Positions 26,425 to 32,589 of a DNA stretch of 48,865 nucleotides are shown one piece after another. Position numbers and translations under genes: made by a program. Position 1 is the first letter of the stretch; every line of letters begins with the position of its first letter. Source of the stretch: Candidatus Parcubacteria bacterium (GTDB lineage Bacteria > Patescibacteriota > Minisyncoccia > Minisyncoccales > JAGMAB01); NCBI GenBank assembly GCA_023131055.1, contig JAGMAB010000002.1, positions 1-48,865 of the forward strand, read 5' to 3'. A model generated the notes under the pieces. The model was not told where the DNA came from. It did not search any database and worked only from the letters and a program-made list of their open reading frames with translations.

Positions 26425-26496
26425 GCCCTTGTAGTTCAATGGATAGAATATTTCCCCCCTAAGGAAAAAATGGAAGTTCGACTCTTCCCAAGGGCA
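26425..26496 (+). tRNA. tRNA-Arg(CCT)
   Basis: GCCCTTG...TTTCC-CCCCTAA-GGAAA...TTCGACT...CAAGGGC-A; C at position 33. Confidence 0.85.
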
Positions 26497-28094
26497 CATA
26501 AGGGCCCATAATCTAGTGGTAAAATACCTCTATGGCATAGAGGAGTCGGGAGTTCGACTCTCCCTGGGTCCACTACTTGTGATTTTTGGGGAGATTTCAC
26601 CCTCAAAAACTGCTGATTTAAGTTAAAAATCACACCTAATTTAGCGGTTCCAAATCCCTTATTTTTGTCATAGGGAATTCCTTCTGGAAACACTAACTTT
26701 TGGAACCGAGGACGCGATTCAGGCAGTAGATCAAACCACTGCCTGCCTAAATTACTAATGAAGTTAGTAGCGTAAGTTAGAACCCCTTCAATATCAAACT
26801 GCTCTATCCGGGATTCATCCAAAGATATTTTTGTAGTAACGATTTCATTATCTGTTTCTTCTTTGCGTTCCTGAAATTCTTGTTTGGTATAAGAGCCATC
26901 TTCTCTCATCTCAAAAATTCTTTTTCTTTTGGCTTGGATTATTTCAAGTCTTTTTTCATATTTCTTGGCTTCTGATTCAAATCCTTTCCCTTTTTCTTGC
27001 CATAAATCCAACACGGTTTCCTTAAACAAATTTAGGAATTTTTCTTTGGGAGTAATTTTTTCTAAATACTGTAAAAATTCTTTTTCAATTGTTTTTTTTA
27101 CTATACTCTTGCCAAACATTTGGCATTCTTTGTTGCGGCAATGATAATAAAAATATCTGCCGCCATTGCCACGAGGAGAACTTCCTGTTAATGGTGTGTT
27201 GCATAAAGCGCAAATTATAGTTCTGCGAAGCGGAAAATTTGGGTTATACCTCACATATTTATTTAGCTGTTTTTTGCCAGTCCGAATAAGTTGAATTTTG
27301 TGAAATTCTTCTTTTGTAATCATTGCTTTGTGCAGACCTTCAATTTTTTCTCCGGTCCAAGGATTCACTAAAACACCTGTATAAAAATTCAAGTATTTTC
27401 CGAGTATTCTGTTAATAAATTGTAATGTGGTTTCTTTGCCGCGAATAGATTTTAATCCCCATTTATCAAGCAATTTTGATAGTTCTACTTGTGAATATAA
27501 TCCTTTAGCGTATTCTTTGAGCGCTTTCTGAATAATTGGGAAAATTTCTTTATCCGGTAAATCAGGTTCAGTTTTCTTTTCTCCTTGTTTTTTGAAATGA
27601 GAGCATTCATAGCCAATCGGTGGTTTCCATGGGAAAATGCCTTTATTTATTCTTTCTGACATGCCATCAATACAGCGTTGTTTTCGGATGGCATTATCAA
27701 ATTCTGAGCTGCCAGCTAAAACAGTTTCAATAAATTTTTCAGCAGGATTATTACCAATGGGTTCGGCAACTGAACGTAATGTAACCTTATAATCAAGTAA
27801 TGTTTTTCTTACATAAAAGTGGTCTTCAGTGTTTCGTGCAAATCTATCAACTTTAGCTACAACAAAAGCGTCAATCTTGCCTTTGTTTTTTCTACAAAAT
27901 TCTATTGCCCGTAAAAATTCAGCCCTATCAGCTGTTTTGGCAGAAGCGCCTTCTTCGCGAAAGACGGCTAATACTTCAATACCTTTTTCTTTACAGTAAT
28001 TGCGGCACTGTTCTTCTTGGAAATCCAAAGAAGTTCCTTTTACTTGTTCGTCGCTTGATACCCTTGTATAAATAATTCCTTTTATCTTTTCCAT
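26436..28094 (-). CDS. Large serine recombinase (resolvase + recombinase + Zn ribbon + coiled coil)
   Basis: IYTRVSS catalytic motif, VDRFARN, PPIGY, CALC...YYHC. The C-terminus runs antisense through tRNA-Ala and tRNA-Arg. Confidence 0.92.
   Translation of the reverse strand: MEKIKGIIYTRVSSDEQVKGTSLDFQEEQCRNYCKEKGIEVLAVFREEGASAKTADRAEFLRAIEFCRKNKGKIDAFVVAKVDRFARNTEDHFYVRKTLLDYKVTLRSVAEPIGNNPAEKFIETVLAGSSEFDNAIRKQRCIDGMSERINKGIFPWKPPIGYECSHFKKQGEKKTEPDLPDKEIFPIIQKALKEYAKGLYSQVELSKLLDKWGLKSIRGKETTLQFINRILGKYLNFYTGVLVNPWTGEKIEGLHKAMITKEEFHKIQLIRTGKKQLNKYVRYNPNFPLRRTIICALCNTPLTGSSPRGNGGRYFYYHCRNKECQMFGKSIVKKTIEKEFLQYLEKITPKEKFLNLFKETVLDLWQEKGKGFESEAKKYEKRLEIIQAKRKRIFEMREDGSYTKQEFQERKEETDNEIVTTKISLDESRIEQFDIEGVLTYATNFISNLGRQWFDLLPESRPRFQKLVFPEGIPYDKNKGFGTAKLGVIFNLNQQFLRVKSPQKSQVVDPGRVELPTPLCHRGILPLDYGPLCALGKSRTSIFSLGGKYSIH
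26502..26572 (+). tRNA. tRNA-Ala(GGC), probable integration site
   Basis: GGGCCCA/TGGGTCC acceptor with G3.U70; CCTCT-ATGGCAT-AGAGG. Confidence 0.92.
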
Positions 28095-28100
28095 AATACT

Positions 28101-28222
28101 TAAAGGGACGGTCTGGTTGACCCAACCTGCTTGCTCCGAAGAGTAGCCCATGCTGGCAGACCGCCCCTTTAGGGTCAGCATGGATAAAAAATCTCTTCGG
28201 ATATGCTACAGGATAGGTCAAC
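28101..28222 (-). ncRNA. Putative bistable structured RNA in the recombinase leader
   Basis: Long nested stem versus an alternative 15-bp stem closing three hairpins (one cUUCGg). Four positions pair as G.U only on the minus strand. Confidence 0.6.
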
Positions 28223-28229
28223 ACTTTTA

Positions 28230-28421
28230 TTATACAATATTTTCTTTTTTAGATAAAGTATATTTCTGTGGACAAACTTTTTCTTTTGGCTTTTTTTCTT
28301 TCTGCCATTTCTCAAAAATGATTTCAGCAAGATCACGAAAACCATCTCGGATTTCTTCTATTTCTTTGTTTGAAAATGTGTCATCGTTAAGAAGTTTCTT
28401 TACATGTTCAACACTTAACAT
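28230..28421 (-). CDS. Small protein upstream of the recombinase (possible directionality factor)
   Basis: 63 aa, helical (SNKEIEEIRD...LAEIIFEKW). Function inferred from position only. Confidence 0.55.
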   Translation of the reverse strand: MLSVEHVKKLLNDDTFSNKEIEEIRDGFRDLAEIIFEKWQKEKKPKEKVCPQKYTLSKKENIV

Positions 28422-28471
28422 GATTGTTTTTAATAACCAATTTATTTAGAAAAAGTATGTGTGCGACTCAC

Positions 28472-28936
28472 TCACTTTTTCTTTTTGATTTCTTTTTGGT
28501 TTTCTTCTGTAGTAATCTTAATAGCTTCTGATATGATTTCGGCGATTTCTCCTTCAAGTTCTTCATCAGACAAATTACTATATTCGTGCTCAACTACAAT
28601 GTTCTCCTTATATCTTCCCTTAATCTTATATGCCTTATCTAATCCGGCATCTCTAGCACGCCATTGATCGTTTGAAAGCAGTTCTTTATGGACTTTAGTT
28701 AATAATTCATCTGGCAACTGTTTTTGAATCAATTCTTGCCAATTGTGCGTTGATAATAATTGGCGCGGAGTTTCCGAATAAGATTTAGAATATCCTTCTA
28801 ATCGCATTGCTTCTCCAATACCAACACCTTTTCCGAGATTATCCGAGATTCTTTTGAGTAATCTTTTATGGCGTTCATTAACCACTTTATGCTTTTTTCT
28901 TGGCACTTTTTTATTTTTCTTAATTTTTTTGTTCAT
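28472..28936 (-). CDS. Terminase small-subunit-like HTH protein
   Basis: AMRLEGYSKSYS resembles the TerS A...AGYS motif; LDKAYKIKG; LSDEEL tail. Confidence 0.5.
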   Translation of the reverse strand: MNKKIKKNKKVPRKKHKVVNERHKRLLKRISDNLGKGVGIGEAMRLEGYSKSYSETPRQLLSTHNWQELIQKQLPDELLTKVHKELLSNDQWRARDAGLDKAYKIKGRYKENIVVEHEYSNLSDEELEGEIAEIISEAIKITTEENQKEIKKKK

Positions 28937-28946
28937 TACTATTCTG

Positions 28947-29147
28947 CTTGTTAATCTTGTTAAAACGCTATTAACAAGTTTTTATACTTAAATTGGTTCG
29001 TTTGTTAAACTTGTTAAATTTTGTTGACCAAAACCTTGCTTTTCAAGAAGATAATCAACTATTGATTATCTTCTGAAAGTTTGGTGTATTTTTGAAAAGC
29101 TTGTTAGTTTATTAATACATATAGGTTATCAAGCTTTTTTTAACAAG
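28947..29147. other. Putative replication origin: CTTGTTAA iterons and a 13-bp inverted repeat
   Basis: Iteron-like octamers at 28947, 28956, 28971(rc), 29001, 29010, 29100 and 29140(rc); AGAAGATAATCAA-CTA-TTGATTATCTTCT at 29046-29074. Confidence 0.65.
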
Positions 29148-29160
29148 CTTTTTGCTGTTT

Positions 29161-30282
29161 TTAGATGTTTTTTGATGGTAAAAAATAAAACTTCTTGTTT
29201 TGTTTGCCTGTCTTATTTTTGAGTATTCCTGTTTGTGTTAGTTCTTTGAGAGCATCTCGTAAATTATTTTTTCCAAAATTAAGCCCTTTTTTTGTTTTTT
29301 CTTCCATTAAATCATTTACTGACCATTCTTTATTCTCTTTAATAGTCGTTAAAATAAAGTCTTTAGCAATATCCTTTGCTTTTTTCTCTTCAAATTCACC
29401 TGTATATCTCCAAAAAGTTTTTTTCTTGAAAGGATTATACCAAATATCAACTCCAAATGATTTTAAGTTTTCTGTTAATCGCGCCTTATATTGAGTAATT
29501 GTTATGTGTAATCCATTAAAATCAGCTCCATCTTTATCAACAACCATTATCTTTCGGCTATCTAATAATAAATGACTGGCAACTTTTGCTAATATTTCTG
29601 TGCTTCCCCGGCTACTTGCTTGCCCGTAGTTCTCTCCCTTTTGCGGCTTTCTATGATGATGAAGGTATAAAATAGTAACATTTGTTTTATCAATTAAATT
29701 GAGTAATGTTCGGTTCACTTCTCGCATTTCAGAGGCGCTGTTTTCTTCCTTGCTGTGAGCAGAATTTAGAGTATCAATGATAAGCATTTCAAATTTATTT
29801 TTTTTAATAACTTTAACTAACCATTCATAATCGTCTTTACTATCAATCTGAAAATCCTGATTATGAAAAGAAATATCTGTTGGTTTATTAATAACTGTAT
29901 GAACCCGGTTAGTAATATCATATTCACTCATTTCTAAATCTAAGATTAAAACTTTCTTTTTCTTTGTTTTATAAATATCAAATAATTTCGTGCCTTCAGC
30001 AATTGCTTGTGCTATTTTGAGAGCAAATAATGATTTTCCTTTACCAACATCAGCGGTTAGAGCTGTAATAGCATTCTCCGGTATCATCTTATCAAGAATA
30101 AAAGGTTGTTTCTTGACTTCTTTTTTAAGAATATCTACTACTGATTCAATTTTTCGTTCAGTTTCTCTTTTAACTTGTTCTTCTATTTCTTCAGTTGATT
30201 TGATATCTACCATAACGGATGTATCCCTAAGTGGAAGTGTAATGTCATCCGTTATGAATAAACTTTCATTACACCTCCACAT
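29161..30282 (-). CDS. RepA-like (AAA_25, SF4) replicative helicase with C-terminal winged helix
   Basis: Walker A ADVGKGKS, LILDLEM, Walker B LIIDTL, LHHHRK, SRGSTEI. Confidence 0.82.
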   Translation of the reverse strand: MWRCNESLFITDDITLPLRDTSVMVDIKSTEEIEEQVKRETERKIESVVDILKKEVKKQPFILDKMIPENAITALTADVGKGKSLFALKIAQAIAEGTKLFDIYKTKKKKVLILDLEMSEYDITNRVHTVINKPTDISFHNQDFQIDSKDDYEWLVKVIKKNKFEMLIIDTLNSAHSKEENSASEMREVNRTLLNLIDKTNVTILYLHHHRKPQKGENYGQASSRGSTEILAKVASHLLLDSRKIMVVDKDGADFNGLHITITQYKARLTENLKSFGVDIWYNPFKKKTFWRYTGEFEEKKAKDIAKDFILTTIKENKEWSVNDLMEEKTKKGLNFGKNNLRDALKELTQTGILKNKTGKQNKKFYFLPSKNI

Positions 30283-30299
30283 AGGGATAAAGTTATTTT

Positions 30300-30875
30300 T
30301 TAAGTTAAAAATTTAACTGTTTCAACAAACGAAAACCCTTTGGTTTCTTGAATAAATTTGATTATATCTCCGTGCCAGCAGCAAGCAAAGCAATAAGCGA
30401 ATCCATTCTTAATATAGAAGCTTCCTTTTTTCTCGGAATGAAATGGACATAAAGCAAAATTCTTTTTTACTTCAATAAATCTTTCAAATGAGACCTGCCG
30501 TGCTTTTTCAATTTGTTGTTTAGTAATTTTTCCCCTTGTCTTTTTGAGTGGAAATAAAACCAATTTTATTTTAGAAATTTCTTTTATCATTTTATCCAAT
30601 TCCTCACCCTTCCAAGTTTTTATAATTTGTTTGAAAAACCAAAGGTTAAAACCGTTATATTTCTTTTGAACTCTCAGAAAATCAAGGTAAATTATCTGAC
30701 TTAGTTTATGAGCTTTTATTTCCATCTCTTTTAATTTTTTCTTCAAATAAGGTCTCACCTCTGGAAAAATCTGTAAAAGTTCAATACCAGAATATATTGG
30801 CAAAGATTTTTTCCACTCTTTTTCTAATTCTTTAATAAACGGGTCAAAACATAAATTTTGATTAAAGTTTTTCAT
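30300..30875 (-). CDS. CHC2 zinc-finger protein (primase zinc-binding domain, no Toprim)
   Basis: CPFHSEKKGSF...YCFACCWHGDIIKF..GFSFVE. Confidence 0.85.
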   Translation of the reverse strand: MKNFNQNLCFDPFIKELEKEWKKSLPIYSGIELLQIFPEVRPYLKKKLKEMEIKAHKLSQIIYLDFLRVQKKYNGFNLWFFKQIIKTWKGEELDKMIKEISKIKLVLFPLKKTRGKITKQQIEKARQVSFERFIEVKKNFALCPFHSEKKGSFYIKNGFAYCFACCWHGDIIKFIQETKGFSFVETVKFLT

Positions 30876-31045
30876 ATTTTTTTTCGCCGTTTTTGTTATT
30901 GTTTTATTTGATTATTCAATACTCAATATATTATTTAGTAGTGCTTTCAAAATAAAATCCACTAAGTGTTTGGCAGTCCGGCGGCGAGTGCGAATATGAA
31001 GCCCGCAGTGAGTTTGCTTAATTTCTCGTTACCAGAATATCACCC

Positions 31046-31083
31046 AAAAATAAAAAACCGGATGTATTACGTAACACCCGGTT
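31046..31083 (-). terminator. Intrinsic terminator/attenuator in the leader of the replication operon
   Basis: Minus strand AACCGGGTGT-TACGTAAT-ACATCCGGTT-TTTTATTTTT. Confidence 0.7.
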
Positions 31084-31224
31084 GATAAATCTTTGGAATT
31101 AAAAACTGGGTGTAAAACAATAATAGTAATTAGTGTTTCAAGGCCCAGTATTTACAAATTCTCGTTATACGAGAGTAGTCATCCACTTGACTACTAGTGG
31201 CTTCACTATTCAATTGTATATTTT

Positions 31225-31253
31225 AATAATAACAAACCCAAAAGATCTGTCAA
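31225..31253 (-). promoter_or_regulatory. Leftward sigma70-like promoter of the element
   Basis: Minus strand TTGACA-16 nt-(TGT)TATTAT. Confidence 0.5.
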
Positions 31254-31343
31254 GGGTTTAATTTATTTACTGCTTATGCTATCTTAAAATTAGAAAAATT
31301 AATAGCCTAACCTTCATAGATTTTTTATGAAGTATGGCATAAA

Positions 31344-31441
31344 AACCCGTCTAAGGTATCAAGCTCCTCGTCAGAGCACCTTAGACGGGTTATATCCCGA
31401 AAGGGGTATAGGTAGCGAAAGCTATCGCTGGCGGGGAGCTT
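31344..31441 (+). ncRNA. Putative cloverleaf/bistable structured RNA in the leader of the cargo operon
   Basis: Perfect 14-bp stem 31344-57/31378-91; alternative 14-bp stem 31361-74/31428-41; two GAAA-capped hairpins; G.U pairs on the + strand. Confidence 0.65.
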
Positions 31442-31470
31442 TGTGTTTACCCGCAAAGACACACGAAATT

Positions 31471-32589
31471 ATGAATAAGATTGTAAAAACGCTTTACAGA
31501 GTTGTCGGTGGCGTCGTCATATTTATTGTTGGCTCTATCGCTTACAGAGTTACAGCTGAGACGGTTCCCGTATTGATTCCATCTTTTGTTCTGATAGGAA
31601 TGCTGATAGTGTTTTTGAAGTTTACTGGGTTGTGGAATTGGCTTTTTGTGAAAAGAAAAAACAAACATCAAAAAGGTTCTATTCAAATATCAATTTTAGC
31701 AGTTATTGTTTTTGGAGTAGTTATCATTGGTGGGTTTGGTTACAATGAATACAAAAATTTTCAGAATGAAAAAATTGAAAACGAGAAATTATTAAGAAAA
31801 CAACAGGATAAACAAATTCAAGAGATAACTATAGCTCAACAAAAAGAGTTAGAGGAAACTAAGCAGGAGATCGAAAAATTAAAATCCGAAAATCAAGAAG
31901 ATAGTAAAAAAATTGAGGAATTGGAACAAAAACAGAAAGACGAAGAATTAAAAGCGATAGGAGAAAATTACCAACCGTTAAGCGCAACTACTTGGTATTT
32001 TGCAACACATATCGTAAAAATAATTTGTTCTGATGATGACTCGCAAGTGGTTAAAAATGGTAGTGGGACTGTTTTCGGATTAAATAGATTTATAATAACA
32101 AATTATCACGTTGTAAAAGATACTACTCAATGCGTTATTGGTATTACTGACGACATAAAAAAGCCACCTTCAAGGTGGTATGATGCGACCGTCGCTTCAA
32201 GTGTTCCATCTCTTGATATTGCCACCCTTAGACCAACACTACCGCTCCCAGACGATGTTATAAGGGTTGGCTCTGATTTTATATGTTCTACTGATGATAT
32301 TGAGCTGGGGGATGAAGTAATAATCATAGGGTATCCTACAGTTGGTGGAAGTACCATTACCGTTACAGAGGGTATTGTAAGCGGGTTTGATGGTTTTCTT
32401 GTTAAAACTTCTGCAAAAATGGAATTTGGAAACTCCGGTGGAGGCGCTTTCCTGCAAAAGCCAAAAACACCCGTTAGGGGCATTATGAGTTGTTGGTTCG
32501 GTATTCCTACTTTTGTGACTCAGGGCCAGTTAGAAAGTATTGGCAGTATTATCAATTATTCACTCATACACGAACAAGCAAATCAATAA
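31471..32589 (+). CDS. Membrane-anchored trypsin-like serine protease with coiled-coil stalk
   Basis: Three TM helices, coiled coil, catalytic triad ITNYHVV / LDIATL / GNSGGG. Confidence 0.85.
   Translation: MNKIVKTLYRVVGGVVIFIVGSIAYRVTAETVPVLIPSFVLIGMLIVFLKFTGLWNWLFVKRKNKHQKGSIQISILAVIVFGVVIIGGFGYNEYKNFQNEKIENEKLLRKQQDKQIQEITIAQQKELEETKQEIEKLKSENQEDSKKIEELEQKQKDEELKAIGENYQPLSATTWYFATHIVKIICSDDDSQVVKNGSGTVFGLNRFIITNYHVVKDTTQCVIGITDDIKKPPSRWYDATVASSVPSLDIATLRPTLPLPDDVIRVGSDFICSTDDIELGDEVIIIGYPTVGGSTITVTEGIVSGFDGFLVKTSAKMEFGNSGGGAFLQKPKTPVRGIMSCWFGIPTFVTQGQLESIGSIINYSLIHEQANQ

Follow-up and report, generated by a model that had tools for sequence, protein, structure and literature searches.

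Genes and parts of the leader

The window analysed here is a 48,865-nucleotide (nt) stretch of DNA from a Candidatus Parcubacteria bacterium (contig JAGMAB010000002.1), and all coordinates refer to this whole stretch. On its minus strand, a G+C-rich island lies between a 63-codon open reading frame (ORF; 28421-28230) and the gene of a large serine recombinase. The G+C content of the island is 0.5-0.6 in 50-nt windows, compared with 0.16-0.36 farther upstream. The island holds a leader of the recombinase gene, on the same strand, with two alternative folds. In the first fold, a nested rod, the strand A5' pairs with the strand A3'. In the second, a long-range stem (T stem) is formed by T5', located in the apical loop of the rod, and T3', located directly after it. 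The leader is almost certainly a real, conserved two-state RNA. Its parts and the two adjacent reading frames are:

28230..28421, minus strand: 63-codon ORF directly upstream of the leader, with no Pfam or PHROG match
28229..28236, minus strand: extended -10 promoter element (TGTATAAT), 6 nt upstream of P1
28176..28222, minus strand: A5', the 5' strand of the rod, comprising the 5' halves of P1-P4 and a U-run
28222-28214 with 28124-28116, minus strand: P1, rod helix
28212-28208 with 28130-28126, minus strand: P2, rod helix (CCUGU/GCAGG)
28201-28193 with 28143-28135, minus strand: P3, rod helix, whose 3' half contains CUC-UUCG-GAG
28192-28185, minus strand: U-run of A5' (AUUUUUUA), between the 5' strands of P3 and P4
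28184-28176 with 28155-28147, minus strand: P4, rod helix
28156..28175, minus strand: apical loop of the rod, 20 nt, containing T5'
28171-28157, minus strand: T5', the 5' strand of the long-range stem (core UAAAGGGGCGGUCUG), inside the apical loop
28116..28155, minus strand: A3', the 3' strand of the rod, comprising the 3' halves of P4, P3, P2 and P1
28101..28115, minus strand: T3', the 3' strand of the long-range stem (CAGACCGUCCCUUUA), with no spacer after P1
28095..28104, minus strand: U-rich tract (UUUAAGUAUU) after the G+C-rich part of the stem, with which it forms a putative intrinsic terminator
26436..28094, minus strand: large serine recombinase gene, starting at ATG 28094-28092

The rod comprises 32 base pairs (bp) on the minus strand within 28222-28101. 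The T stem pairs 28171-28157 with 28115-28101 through 15 uninterrupted pairs, one of them G.U, or through 17 pairs with one mismatch. An earlier note on this DNA, made from the sequence alone, had described both folds, and their helices are present on the minus strand where it placed them, including the 15-bp pairing of the loop with the segment after the rod. It had also observed that the structure ends 6 nt before the recombinase start codon, which we confirm: AGTATT separates the two, and ATG 28094-28092 is the true start, as the N-terminal sequence MEKIKGIIYTRVSS aligns with the N-termini of homologues. A longer ORF of 581 codons, starting at the in-frame ATG 28181 inside P4, crosses the structure and is not conserved. 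Automatic annotation would likely set the recombinase start at this upstream ATG, inside the leader RNA.

Three small hairpins had been proposed within the second fold. In its minimum free energy (MFE) structure, calculated under constraint, the CUC-UUCG-GAG hairpin is present, while the other two are marginal. The cloverleaf read into this region by the earlier note is not conserved, and short family members have a plain hairpin there. We also considered a tRNA-like cloverleaf with an apparent NCCA at the junction of P1 and T3'. This was rejected: the NCCA consists of the closing G-C of P1 and the CAG of T3', and is absent in short variants.

The unconstrained MFE structure of 28240-28085 is the rod, with -53.2 kcal/mol compared with -38.1 ± 3.9 kcal/mol for shuffled sequences (z = -3.83); one of 200 shuffles folds as well. 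When the 128-nt leader is shuffled by mononucleotides, 1 of 300 sequences contains an uninterrupted helix of 15 pairs. Taken alone, these single-sequence statistics of the window leader give only moderate support, and the leader exceeds chance because of its conservation and covariation across the family described below. A simple promoter and terminator scan of 27600-28700, which recognizes only promoters with a -35 box and hairpins whose loop has 3-8 nt, missed both the promoter and the stem. A repeat search of the whole window was uninformative, its list being made up mostly of A/T-rich repeats.

The helices of the rod and the T stem have no nucleotides in common and are interleaved in the order A5'-T5'-A3'-T3', with a spacing of 0 nt between A3' and T3' in nearly all leaders. 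Since T3' begins 0-1 nt after a rod of 20-32 bp and its partner T5' sits at the tip of this rod, the two folds cannot coexist. The same geometry excludes an H-type pseudoknot in which both helices would form together.

Conservation and covariation upstream of serine recombinase genes

Relatives of the recombinase were collected from genomes of the phylum (401 genomes, 166 with a match, the best 30 loci taken), a collection of species genomes (1 locus), metagenomes (the best 80 of 276, 60-78% identity) and viral contigs (80 mostly distant loci found by an alignment scan). A single-protein scan of the viral contigs found no recombinase relative. A script that detects the interleaved helices, with no selection for U content, passed 65 of 187 upstream regions. 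By eye, L023, L034, L103, L193, L194, L197 and L198 were dropped as false and L187 as mis-registered. Collapsing identical sequences left 53 non-identical leaders. These share the order promoter, A5', loop with T5', A3', T3' without spacer, U-run, 1-39 nt, start codon.

A covariance model (R1), built from 10 sequences with the rod as its structure, matches on the recombinase-sense strand in 51 of 99 sources, plus 7 of 92 sources; the window copy scores 68.6 bits (28089-28222, minus strand). By this model the leader stands directly upstream of the gene in 51 of the 80 metagenomic relatives (best 80 of 276), and it is present in about 9 of the 30 genome loci (best 30 of 166) and in none of the 80 viral-contig loci. 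R1 gave five matches over 150 further genomes of the phylum, all of them directly upstream of a serine recombinase of ~500 amino acids that belongs to a different subfamily. No leader copy was found away from a recombinase gene in the loci and genomes searched. The source genome (506 kb, 35 contigs) contains a single copy, and the genomes of the same family (2 members) gave only chance matches. A search of Rfam 15 returned no match at the leader, neither at the gathering score nor at expectation values (E) up to 10.

The model-guided alignment A7 comprises 49 sequences and marks the T stem by a second type of bracket. In A7, 94.0% of the cells are paired, compared with 74.2 ± 0.5% in shuffles, and this share falls to 34-45% when the 3' partner is slid by 1-3 columns. 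Double changes are found in 43 of 50 pairs and in 440 cells, compared with 117 cells in shuffles, and 0 of 500 shuffles reach any of the covariation measures. The pairs with double changes are distributed over the helices as follows:

P1/P2: 13 of 13 pairs
P3: 7 of 7 pairs
P4: 12 of 13 pairs
T stem: 11 of 17 pairs, with 93.2% of cells paired

Compensatory changes thus affect 32 of the 33 rod pairs. Covariation upstream of homologous serine recombinases had been set beforehand as a test of the two-state idea, and it is found for both of the mutually exclusive folds. These counts carry two reservations: A7 was fitted to the rod, and many of its rows come from one clade, so that its cells are not independent events; the T stem was absent from the model behind A7.

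A second test of the rod is free of this fitting caveat, because the leaders were detected by their T stem alone. A5' strands were swapped among 56 non-identical loci, of which L129, L130 and L132 have no R1 match and were not counted as members, leaving 53. The leader's own A5'/A3' duplex is the best of the 56 partners in 41 of these, and in the other 12 only 1-3 close relatives equal it. On average, the own duplex has about twice the cross-locus energy; in the window it reaches -46.3 kcal/mol, compared with a cross mean of -18.9 kcal/mol. Given a plain MAFFT alignment, RNAalifold also found the T stem, with compensatory changes in 9 of 13 pairs. The rod was not recovered, because its variable sequence is misaligned; this called for a covariance model.

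Cells of A7 contain 146 G.U and 34 A.C combinations. For 41 of the 49 sequences, the sense strand gives a better fold than the complementary strand. This excess of G.U and the better folding of the sense strand indicate that the structure belongs to the recombinase-sense RNA, in agreement with the selection at RNA level on the minus strand that the earlier note had argued from four G.U positions. Three of these are found in the model-fitted alignment and the fourth is a U.G pair of P2, identified by eye, so this count is roughly as claimed. The same asymmetry bears on the idea of a DNA-level element, whose inverted repeats would be protein sites (e.g. for autoregulation by the recombinase) or a single-stranded DNA hairpin (a single-strand origin or promoter). 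Long inverted repeats do adjoin the recombinase gene in a self-replicating element with helicase and primase genes, and the T arms are conserved in sequence. Besides the strand preference, however, the rod varies freely in sequence while keeping its pairing, unlike protein sites; the U-run is orientation-specific, the position of the promoter predicts a transcript beginning with the rod, and there is no likeness to the junction of the attachment site (att) and the tRNA gene. We regard a DNA-level function as very doubtful.

Part of the family of recombinases lacks the leader. No R1 match is found in 28 of the 80 metagenomic relatives, among them L120, which has a short variant detected by the script only. 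L121, L122, L125 and L153 are among the closest relatives (77-78% identity) and have a clean deletion of the leader (about 1155-1200), in which the promoter and the first bases of P1 are kept and the start codon follows directly. In L002, with a recombinase of 54% identity, an ORF abuts the recombinase gene and there is no leader. The leader-less relatives indicate that the leader is dispensable for the enzyme, which fits a regulatory element.

These observations also concern the proposal, raised in the earlier note, that the RNA is a partner of the recombinase, i.e., a cofactor or guide by analogy with the bridge RNAs of IS110. What speaks for such a role is confined to the position directly 5' of the recombinase gene, the leader's own promoter and its exclusive association with recombinases. 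As a large serine recombinase, the enzyme brings DNA-binding domains of its own, and the 28 of 80 close relatives without the leader (by R1), four of them clean deletions, would have to do without their guide. Complementarity to the att/tRNA junction is matched by 21 and 16 of 100 shuffles, the longest shared word being 7 nt, and the internal loops are A/U-rich and not target-like. Neither loops complementary to target or donor DNA nor a DEDD-type recombinase, the marks of IS110 bridge RNA systems, were found at this locus. The proposal is not supported, and we find a guide function barely credible.

In the leader-less loci L193, L194, L197 and L198, an 8-nt word (GTGTAGGA and its complement) is repeated in both direct and inverted orientation, forming an array ~190 nt ahead of the recombinase start. 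The array resembles protein-binding sites, and a different control module may occupy the same position in these loci.

Putative termination signal, predicted order of folding and translation start

Hexamers resembling a -10 box are concentrated 11-15 nt upstream of P1, with 50 in this 5-nt bin and 6 in the next over the 53 leaders; the promoter of the main clade reads TTGCTC-17-TATAAT. With the -10 box at this position, transcription is predicted to begin at the base of the rod. In the window, the predicted start is the base of the rod or lies at most ~2 nt from it, and the stop codon of the 63-codon ORF (28232-28230) falls within the extended -10 element.

At the other end of the leader, the T stem is G+C-rich, 15-18 bp long and located on the sense strand between promoter and ORF. 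In all 53 leaders, at least 3 of the 4 nt that follow the last C of T3' are U, and 94% have at least 5 U in 9 nt, compared with 11% of background 9-mers following a C. The U-run is kept even where it is impossible for it to pair with the A-tract of T5' (e.g. in L011). Judged by its sequence, a G+C-rich stem followed by a U-run is the signature of an intrinsic terminator. The leader combines this signal with a conserved, mutually exclusive alternative helix, as terminator/antiterminator leaders do. The host region contains 88 sigma70-like promoters (56.1 ± 6.9 in shuffles) and 28 canonical terminator-like hairpins (16.7 ± 5.1 in shuffles).

Calculated energies favor the rod. Its state has a family mean of -39.9 kcal/mol, compared with -33.4 kcal/mol for the T-stem state, and is lower in 47 of 53 leaders; for the window leader the values are -51.3 and -39.7 kcal/mol. 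Without A5', the T stem folds at -24 to -43 kcal/mol. In a series of MFE structures of the growing chain, with 12 nt assumed to be hidden in the polymerase, the rod is fully zipped before T3' emerges, and the direct path from the rod to the T-stem state has a barrier of ~48 kcal/mol, a heuristic upper bound. As the rod is complete before T3' emerges and the barrier is high, the default outcome is expected to be read-through. The conserved terminator would therefore act only if A5' were kept from pairing during transcription.

The two strands of the rod differ in their own folding. A5' alone (mean length 45 nt, G+C content 0.35) is AU-rich and unstructured, with a mean MFE of -2.35 kcal/mol (-3.29 when shuffled), and has a run of at least 5 U in 40 of 49 sequences. 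A3' alone (mean length 35 nt, G+C content 0.45) forms small hairpins, with a mean MFE of -7.1 kcal/mol (-5.0 when shuffled), and of the two isolated strands it is the stabler in 52 of 53 leaders. A hairpin with UUCG is present in A3' in 32 of 53 leaders and in A5' in 8 of 53. This asymmetry fits a switch acting in cis.

We propose, with a probability of roughly 0.55, that the leader is a transcription attenuator whose default is ON. It would be the 5' leader of an integrase mRNA encoded by a small integrative element that targets tRNA genes, with transcription starting at a sigma70-type promoter whose -10 box ends 6 nt before the rod. In state A, A5' would pair with A3' (P1-P4), trapping T5' in the apical loop and leaving T3' single-stranded, so that the polymerase would read into the recombinase gene. 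In state B, the T5'/T3' stem of 15-18 bp would close over a compacted A3' and, with the U-run directly after it, would act as an intrinsic terminator before the start codon. The rod, transcribed first and on average stabler, would be the antiterminator, and shut-off would occur only if something held the AU-rich A5' during synthesis of the leader. This factor may be an RNA or a protein with affinity for A/U-rich single strands of RNA. We infer all three components of this scheme: termination by state B, read-through by default and the trans-acting factor.

A leader peptide was considered as well, with T5' (AAAGGGG) resembling a Shine-Dalgarno (SD) sequence and an AUG ~10 nt later, which is here in frame with the recombinase. 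We rejected it: the AUG is missing in several diverse members, frame and peptide are not conserved by eye, and the organism seems to be SD-independent. SD-like words at -16 to -4 precede none of the 37 window ORFs of at least 150 codons (taken from the first ATG), compared with 7.5% of random positions, and occur in 4 of 53 leaders. On this pattern, the organism appears to initiate translation without SD pairing.

Initiation of this kind raises the question of how close the T stem comes to the start codon. In the window the stem ends 4-6 nt from the ATG, and in nearly all of the 53 leaders it ends within about 22 nt of the start codon. A translational or stability element could make use of this arrangement: the rod, at the 5' terminus, would block 5'-end-dependent decay and keep T3' and the A/U-rich spacer open, while the T5'/T3' stem would occlude the landing site of the ribosome, with no termination involved. 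The start of the rod at the predicted transcription start agrees with such a role, and, as SD-like words occur in only 4 of 53 leaders and 0 of 37 long ORFs, initiation should depend mainly on local structure. Against this, the start codon follows the last C of T3' at a distance of 7 to 39 nt (median 24, 53 leaders), which exceeds 20 nt in 31 of 53 and there leaves ~18-20 unpaired A-rich nt. The U-run present after the stem in 53 of 53 leaders is unnecessary for a translational hairpin, and here too, as in an attenuator, the stem cannot form once the rod exists. We consider this account unlikely; in the window, a block of initiation by the stem could be a local addition at best, not the conserved mechanism. 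Of the switch gating recombinase translation that the earlier note had proposed, the switch stands, while its translational part is less general, given the 7-39 nt distance and the U-run in all 53 leaders.

Several points weigh against transcription attenuation with a default ON state. With the stem near the start codon and no use of SD pairing, an effect on translation is inseparable from termination. In the calculations the rod always wins, so that the terminator would not be able to form without a trans-acting factor, and the searches for this factor gave no candidate. A search of sequencing runs listed no RNA run containing this DNA. Antisense -10-like hexamers downstream of the leader show no positional peak (at most 5 of 53 per 5-nt bin) under the same criteria as the sense peak, which weak or non-canonical promoters could escape. 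Candidate partners of A5', sought on both strands of the element (26570-31450) and in the nearby LOOT RNA, pair no better than shuffled controls. The signal itself has weak points: the U-run of the main clade is short (UUUAAGUU), its first bases pair with the A-tract of T5', and the stem encloses an insert of 35-40 nt instead of a small loop, which would weaken a terminator. Finally, conserved positions sit in helices, chiefly the T helix, while junctions and internal loops are A/U-rich and variable; the commonest base accounts for a share of 0.86 in the T columns, compared with 0.66-0.72 in the rod helices. A stem acting purely in cis does not explain why the sequences of T5' and T3' are more conserved than the rod.

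This higher conservation keeps alive a model of pairing in trans. In such a riboregulator, the rod RNA of earlier transcripts would pair the T5' in its loop with the free T3' of nascent integrase transcripts from the same or a sister element, forming an intermolecular terminator stem by the U-run or blocking initiation; the result would be negative feedback, copy sensing or immunity. In a variant, two leaders could cross-link head to tail into a dimer. State A leaves T5' and T3' unpaired and mutually unreachable in cis, an exclusion that is enforced by the zero spacer between P1 and T3', and the searches gave neither another partner nor an antisense promoter. Nonetheless, the self-folding of A3' with an open A5' in 52 of 53 leaders, and a state B energy within about 6.5 kcal/mol of that of state A, point to state B being formed in cis. 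The apical loop is partly self-paired in the MFE structure, and a closed loop of 20 nt hardly forms 15-17 bp with a long RNA. Immunity moreover predicts diverging T sequences, yet these are conserved. Pairing in trans seems quite improbable to us.

Host element, known attenuators and significance

The recombinase that follows the proposed attenuator gives matches to the three domains of large serine recombinases. Its resolvase catalytic domain (PF00239 Resolvase, 4.6e-30) and zinc ribbon (PF13408 Zn_ribbon_recom, 2.8e-06) are above the curated cut-offs, and its recombinase domain (PF07508 Recombinase, 0.001) is, at 19.7 bits, just below the cut-off of 21.1 bits. The protein also matches the integrase family PHROG 95 (9.6e-71). 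Its ORF runs antisense through tRNA-Ala(GGC) (26502-26573) and tRNA-Arg(CCT) (26425-26497), both on the plus strand, so that the last ~46 codons are antisense to tRNA. The homologue in L002 (54% identical) likewise runs into a tRNA-Arg(TCT). From this arrangement, the element would sit at the end of a tRNA gene, and its integration would rewrite the tail of the enzyme.

Upstream on the same strand are the 63-codon ORF, a 154-codon ORF, an AAA_25/DnaB-like helicase and a protein with a CHC2 primase zinc finger. Judging from these features, the host element is a small tRNA-targeting integrative, plasmid-like element. By tblastn, 25 related loci, some with the leader and some lacking it, have a homologue of the 63-codon ORF just before the recombinase gene, and the product of this ORF is a candidate excision or regulatory protein. 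In the main clade, as in L170 (108-953, plus strand), the same-strand gene upstream of the leader is, by sequence, a CHC2 zinc-finger primase-like gene. With such a gene upstream, the leader also separates the integrase gene from replication genes.

A LOOT RNA (RF03000) is located at 31304-31426 on the plus strand; it lies at the element's far side, ~430 nt past the primase-like gene. It covers the full model with 100 bits (gathering score 46.4). A trypsin-like protease ORF (31327-32589) is called with its start inside this RNA, and its actual start probably lies farther downstream. No complementarity between the LOOT RNA and the leader was found beyond that of shuffles.

The leader resembles several known regulatory systems in part. 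Riboswitch and T-box expression platforms also place a bistable, kinetically decided terminator/antiterminator between promoter and ORF. Unlike these, the leader has its conservation in helices: no conserved unpaired core for a ligand or a tRNA was found in the family alignment, there is no T-box match in Rfam, and complementarity to tRNA-Ala does not exceed that of shuffles.

In the immunity system of the satellite phage P4, seqB of the CI RNA pairs with seqA and seqC. There, too, a stable leader stem-loop exposes a sequence that can pair with a segment farther downstream in its own transcript, and both P4 and the host element of the leader are small integrative, plasmid-like and located at a tRNA gene. 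The leader differs in having one target site instead of two, shows no relationship to the CI RNA in sequence or in Rfam, and in this analysis gave no sign of processing or of acting in trans.

The pT181 repC and pIP501 repR leaders are attenuated by countertranscripts. The same principle is described for RnaG acting on icsA in Shigella (PMC2879508). The leader shares with these three systems a gene of a mobile element, two exclusive folds, a 5' segment whose sequestration permits the terminator and a plasmid-like setting. They have an antisense promoter opposite the leader, whereas none is conserved downstream of the leader studied here, where antisense -10-like hexamers form no peak. Systems of the pT181/pIP501 type moreover control rep, and this leader controls int.

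Protein-driven attenuation is exemplified by TRAP on the trp leader of Bacillus subtilis (PMC3064811). The two share a default antiterminator that comes first, a factor on its 5' strand that permits a rather weak downstream terminator, and a regulated strand that is long and single-stranded. In the trp leader, antiterminator and terminator share nucleotides, whereas here none are shared and the strands are interleaved as A5'-T5'-A3'-T3'. The leader further differs in lacking (G/U)AG repeats and a known binding protein, and in regulating an integrase gene.

A literature search (without supplements) found no description of the leader, nor of integrase silencing in tRNA-targeting serine-integrase elements of the Candidate Phyla Radiation (CPR). 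The logic of attenuation is known; what differs here is the interleaved arrangement without overlap, the missing effector and the exclusive link to serine recombinases. The loop of the antiterminator encloses a terminator strand, so that exclusion arises from geometry and not from competition for bases, an unusual layout. The leader represents a widespread RNA family, exclusive to serine recombinase genes and without a match in Rfam 15.

The leader offers a compact, testable model of kinetic RNA switching and can serve as a marker for such elements and for the true start codons of their integrases. Serine integrases are common tools of genome engineering, and the leader is a possible part for their control. 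Mobile elements need a brief synthesis of integrase, followed by silencing. If the leader acts in trans, the integrase would be made only just after entry of the element or a change in its copy number, and serine-integrase elements of these ultra-small bacteria would possess a timing or immunity circuit made of RNA only.

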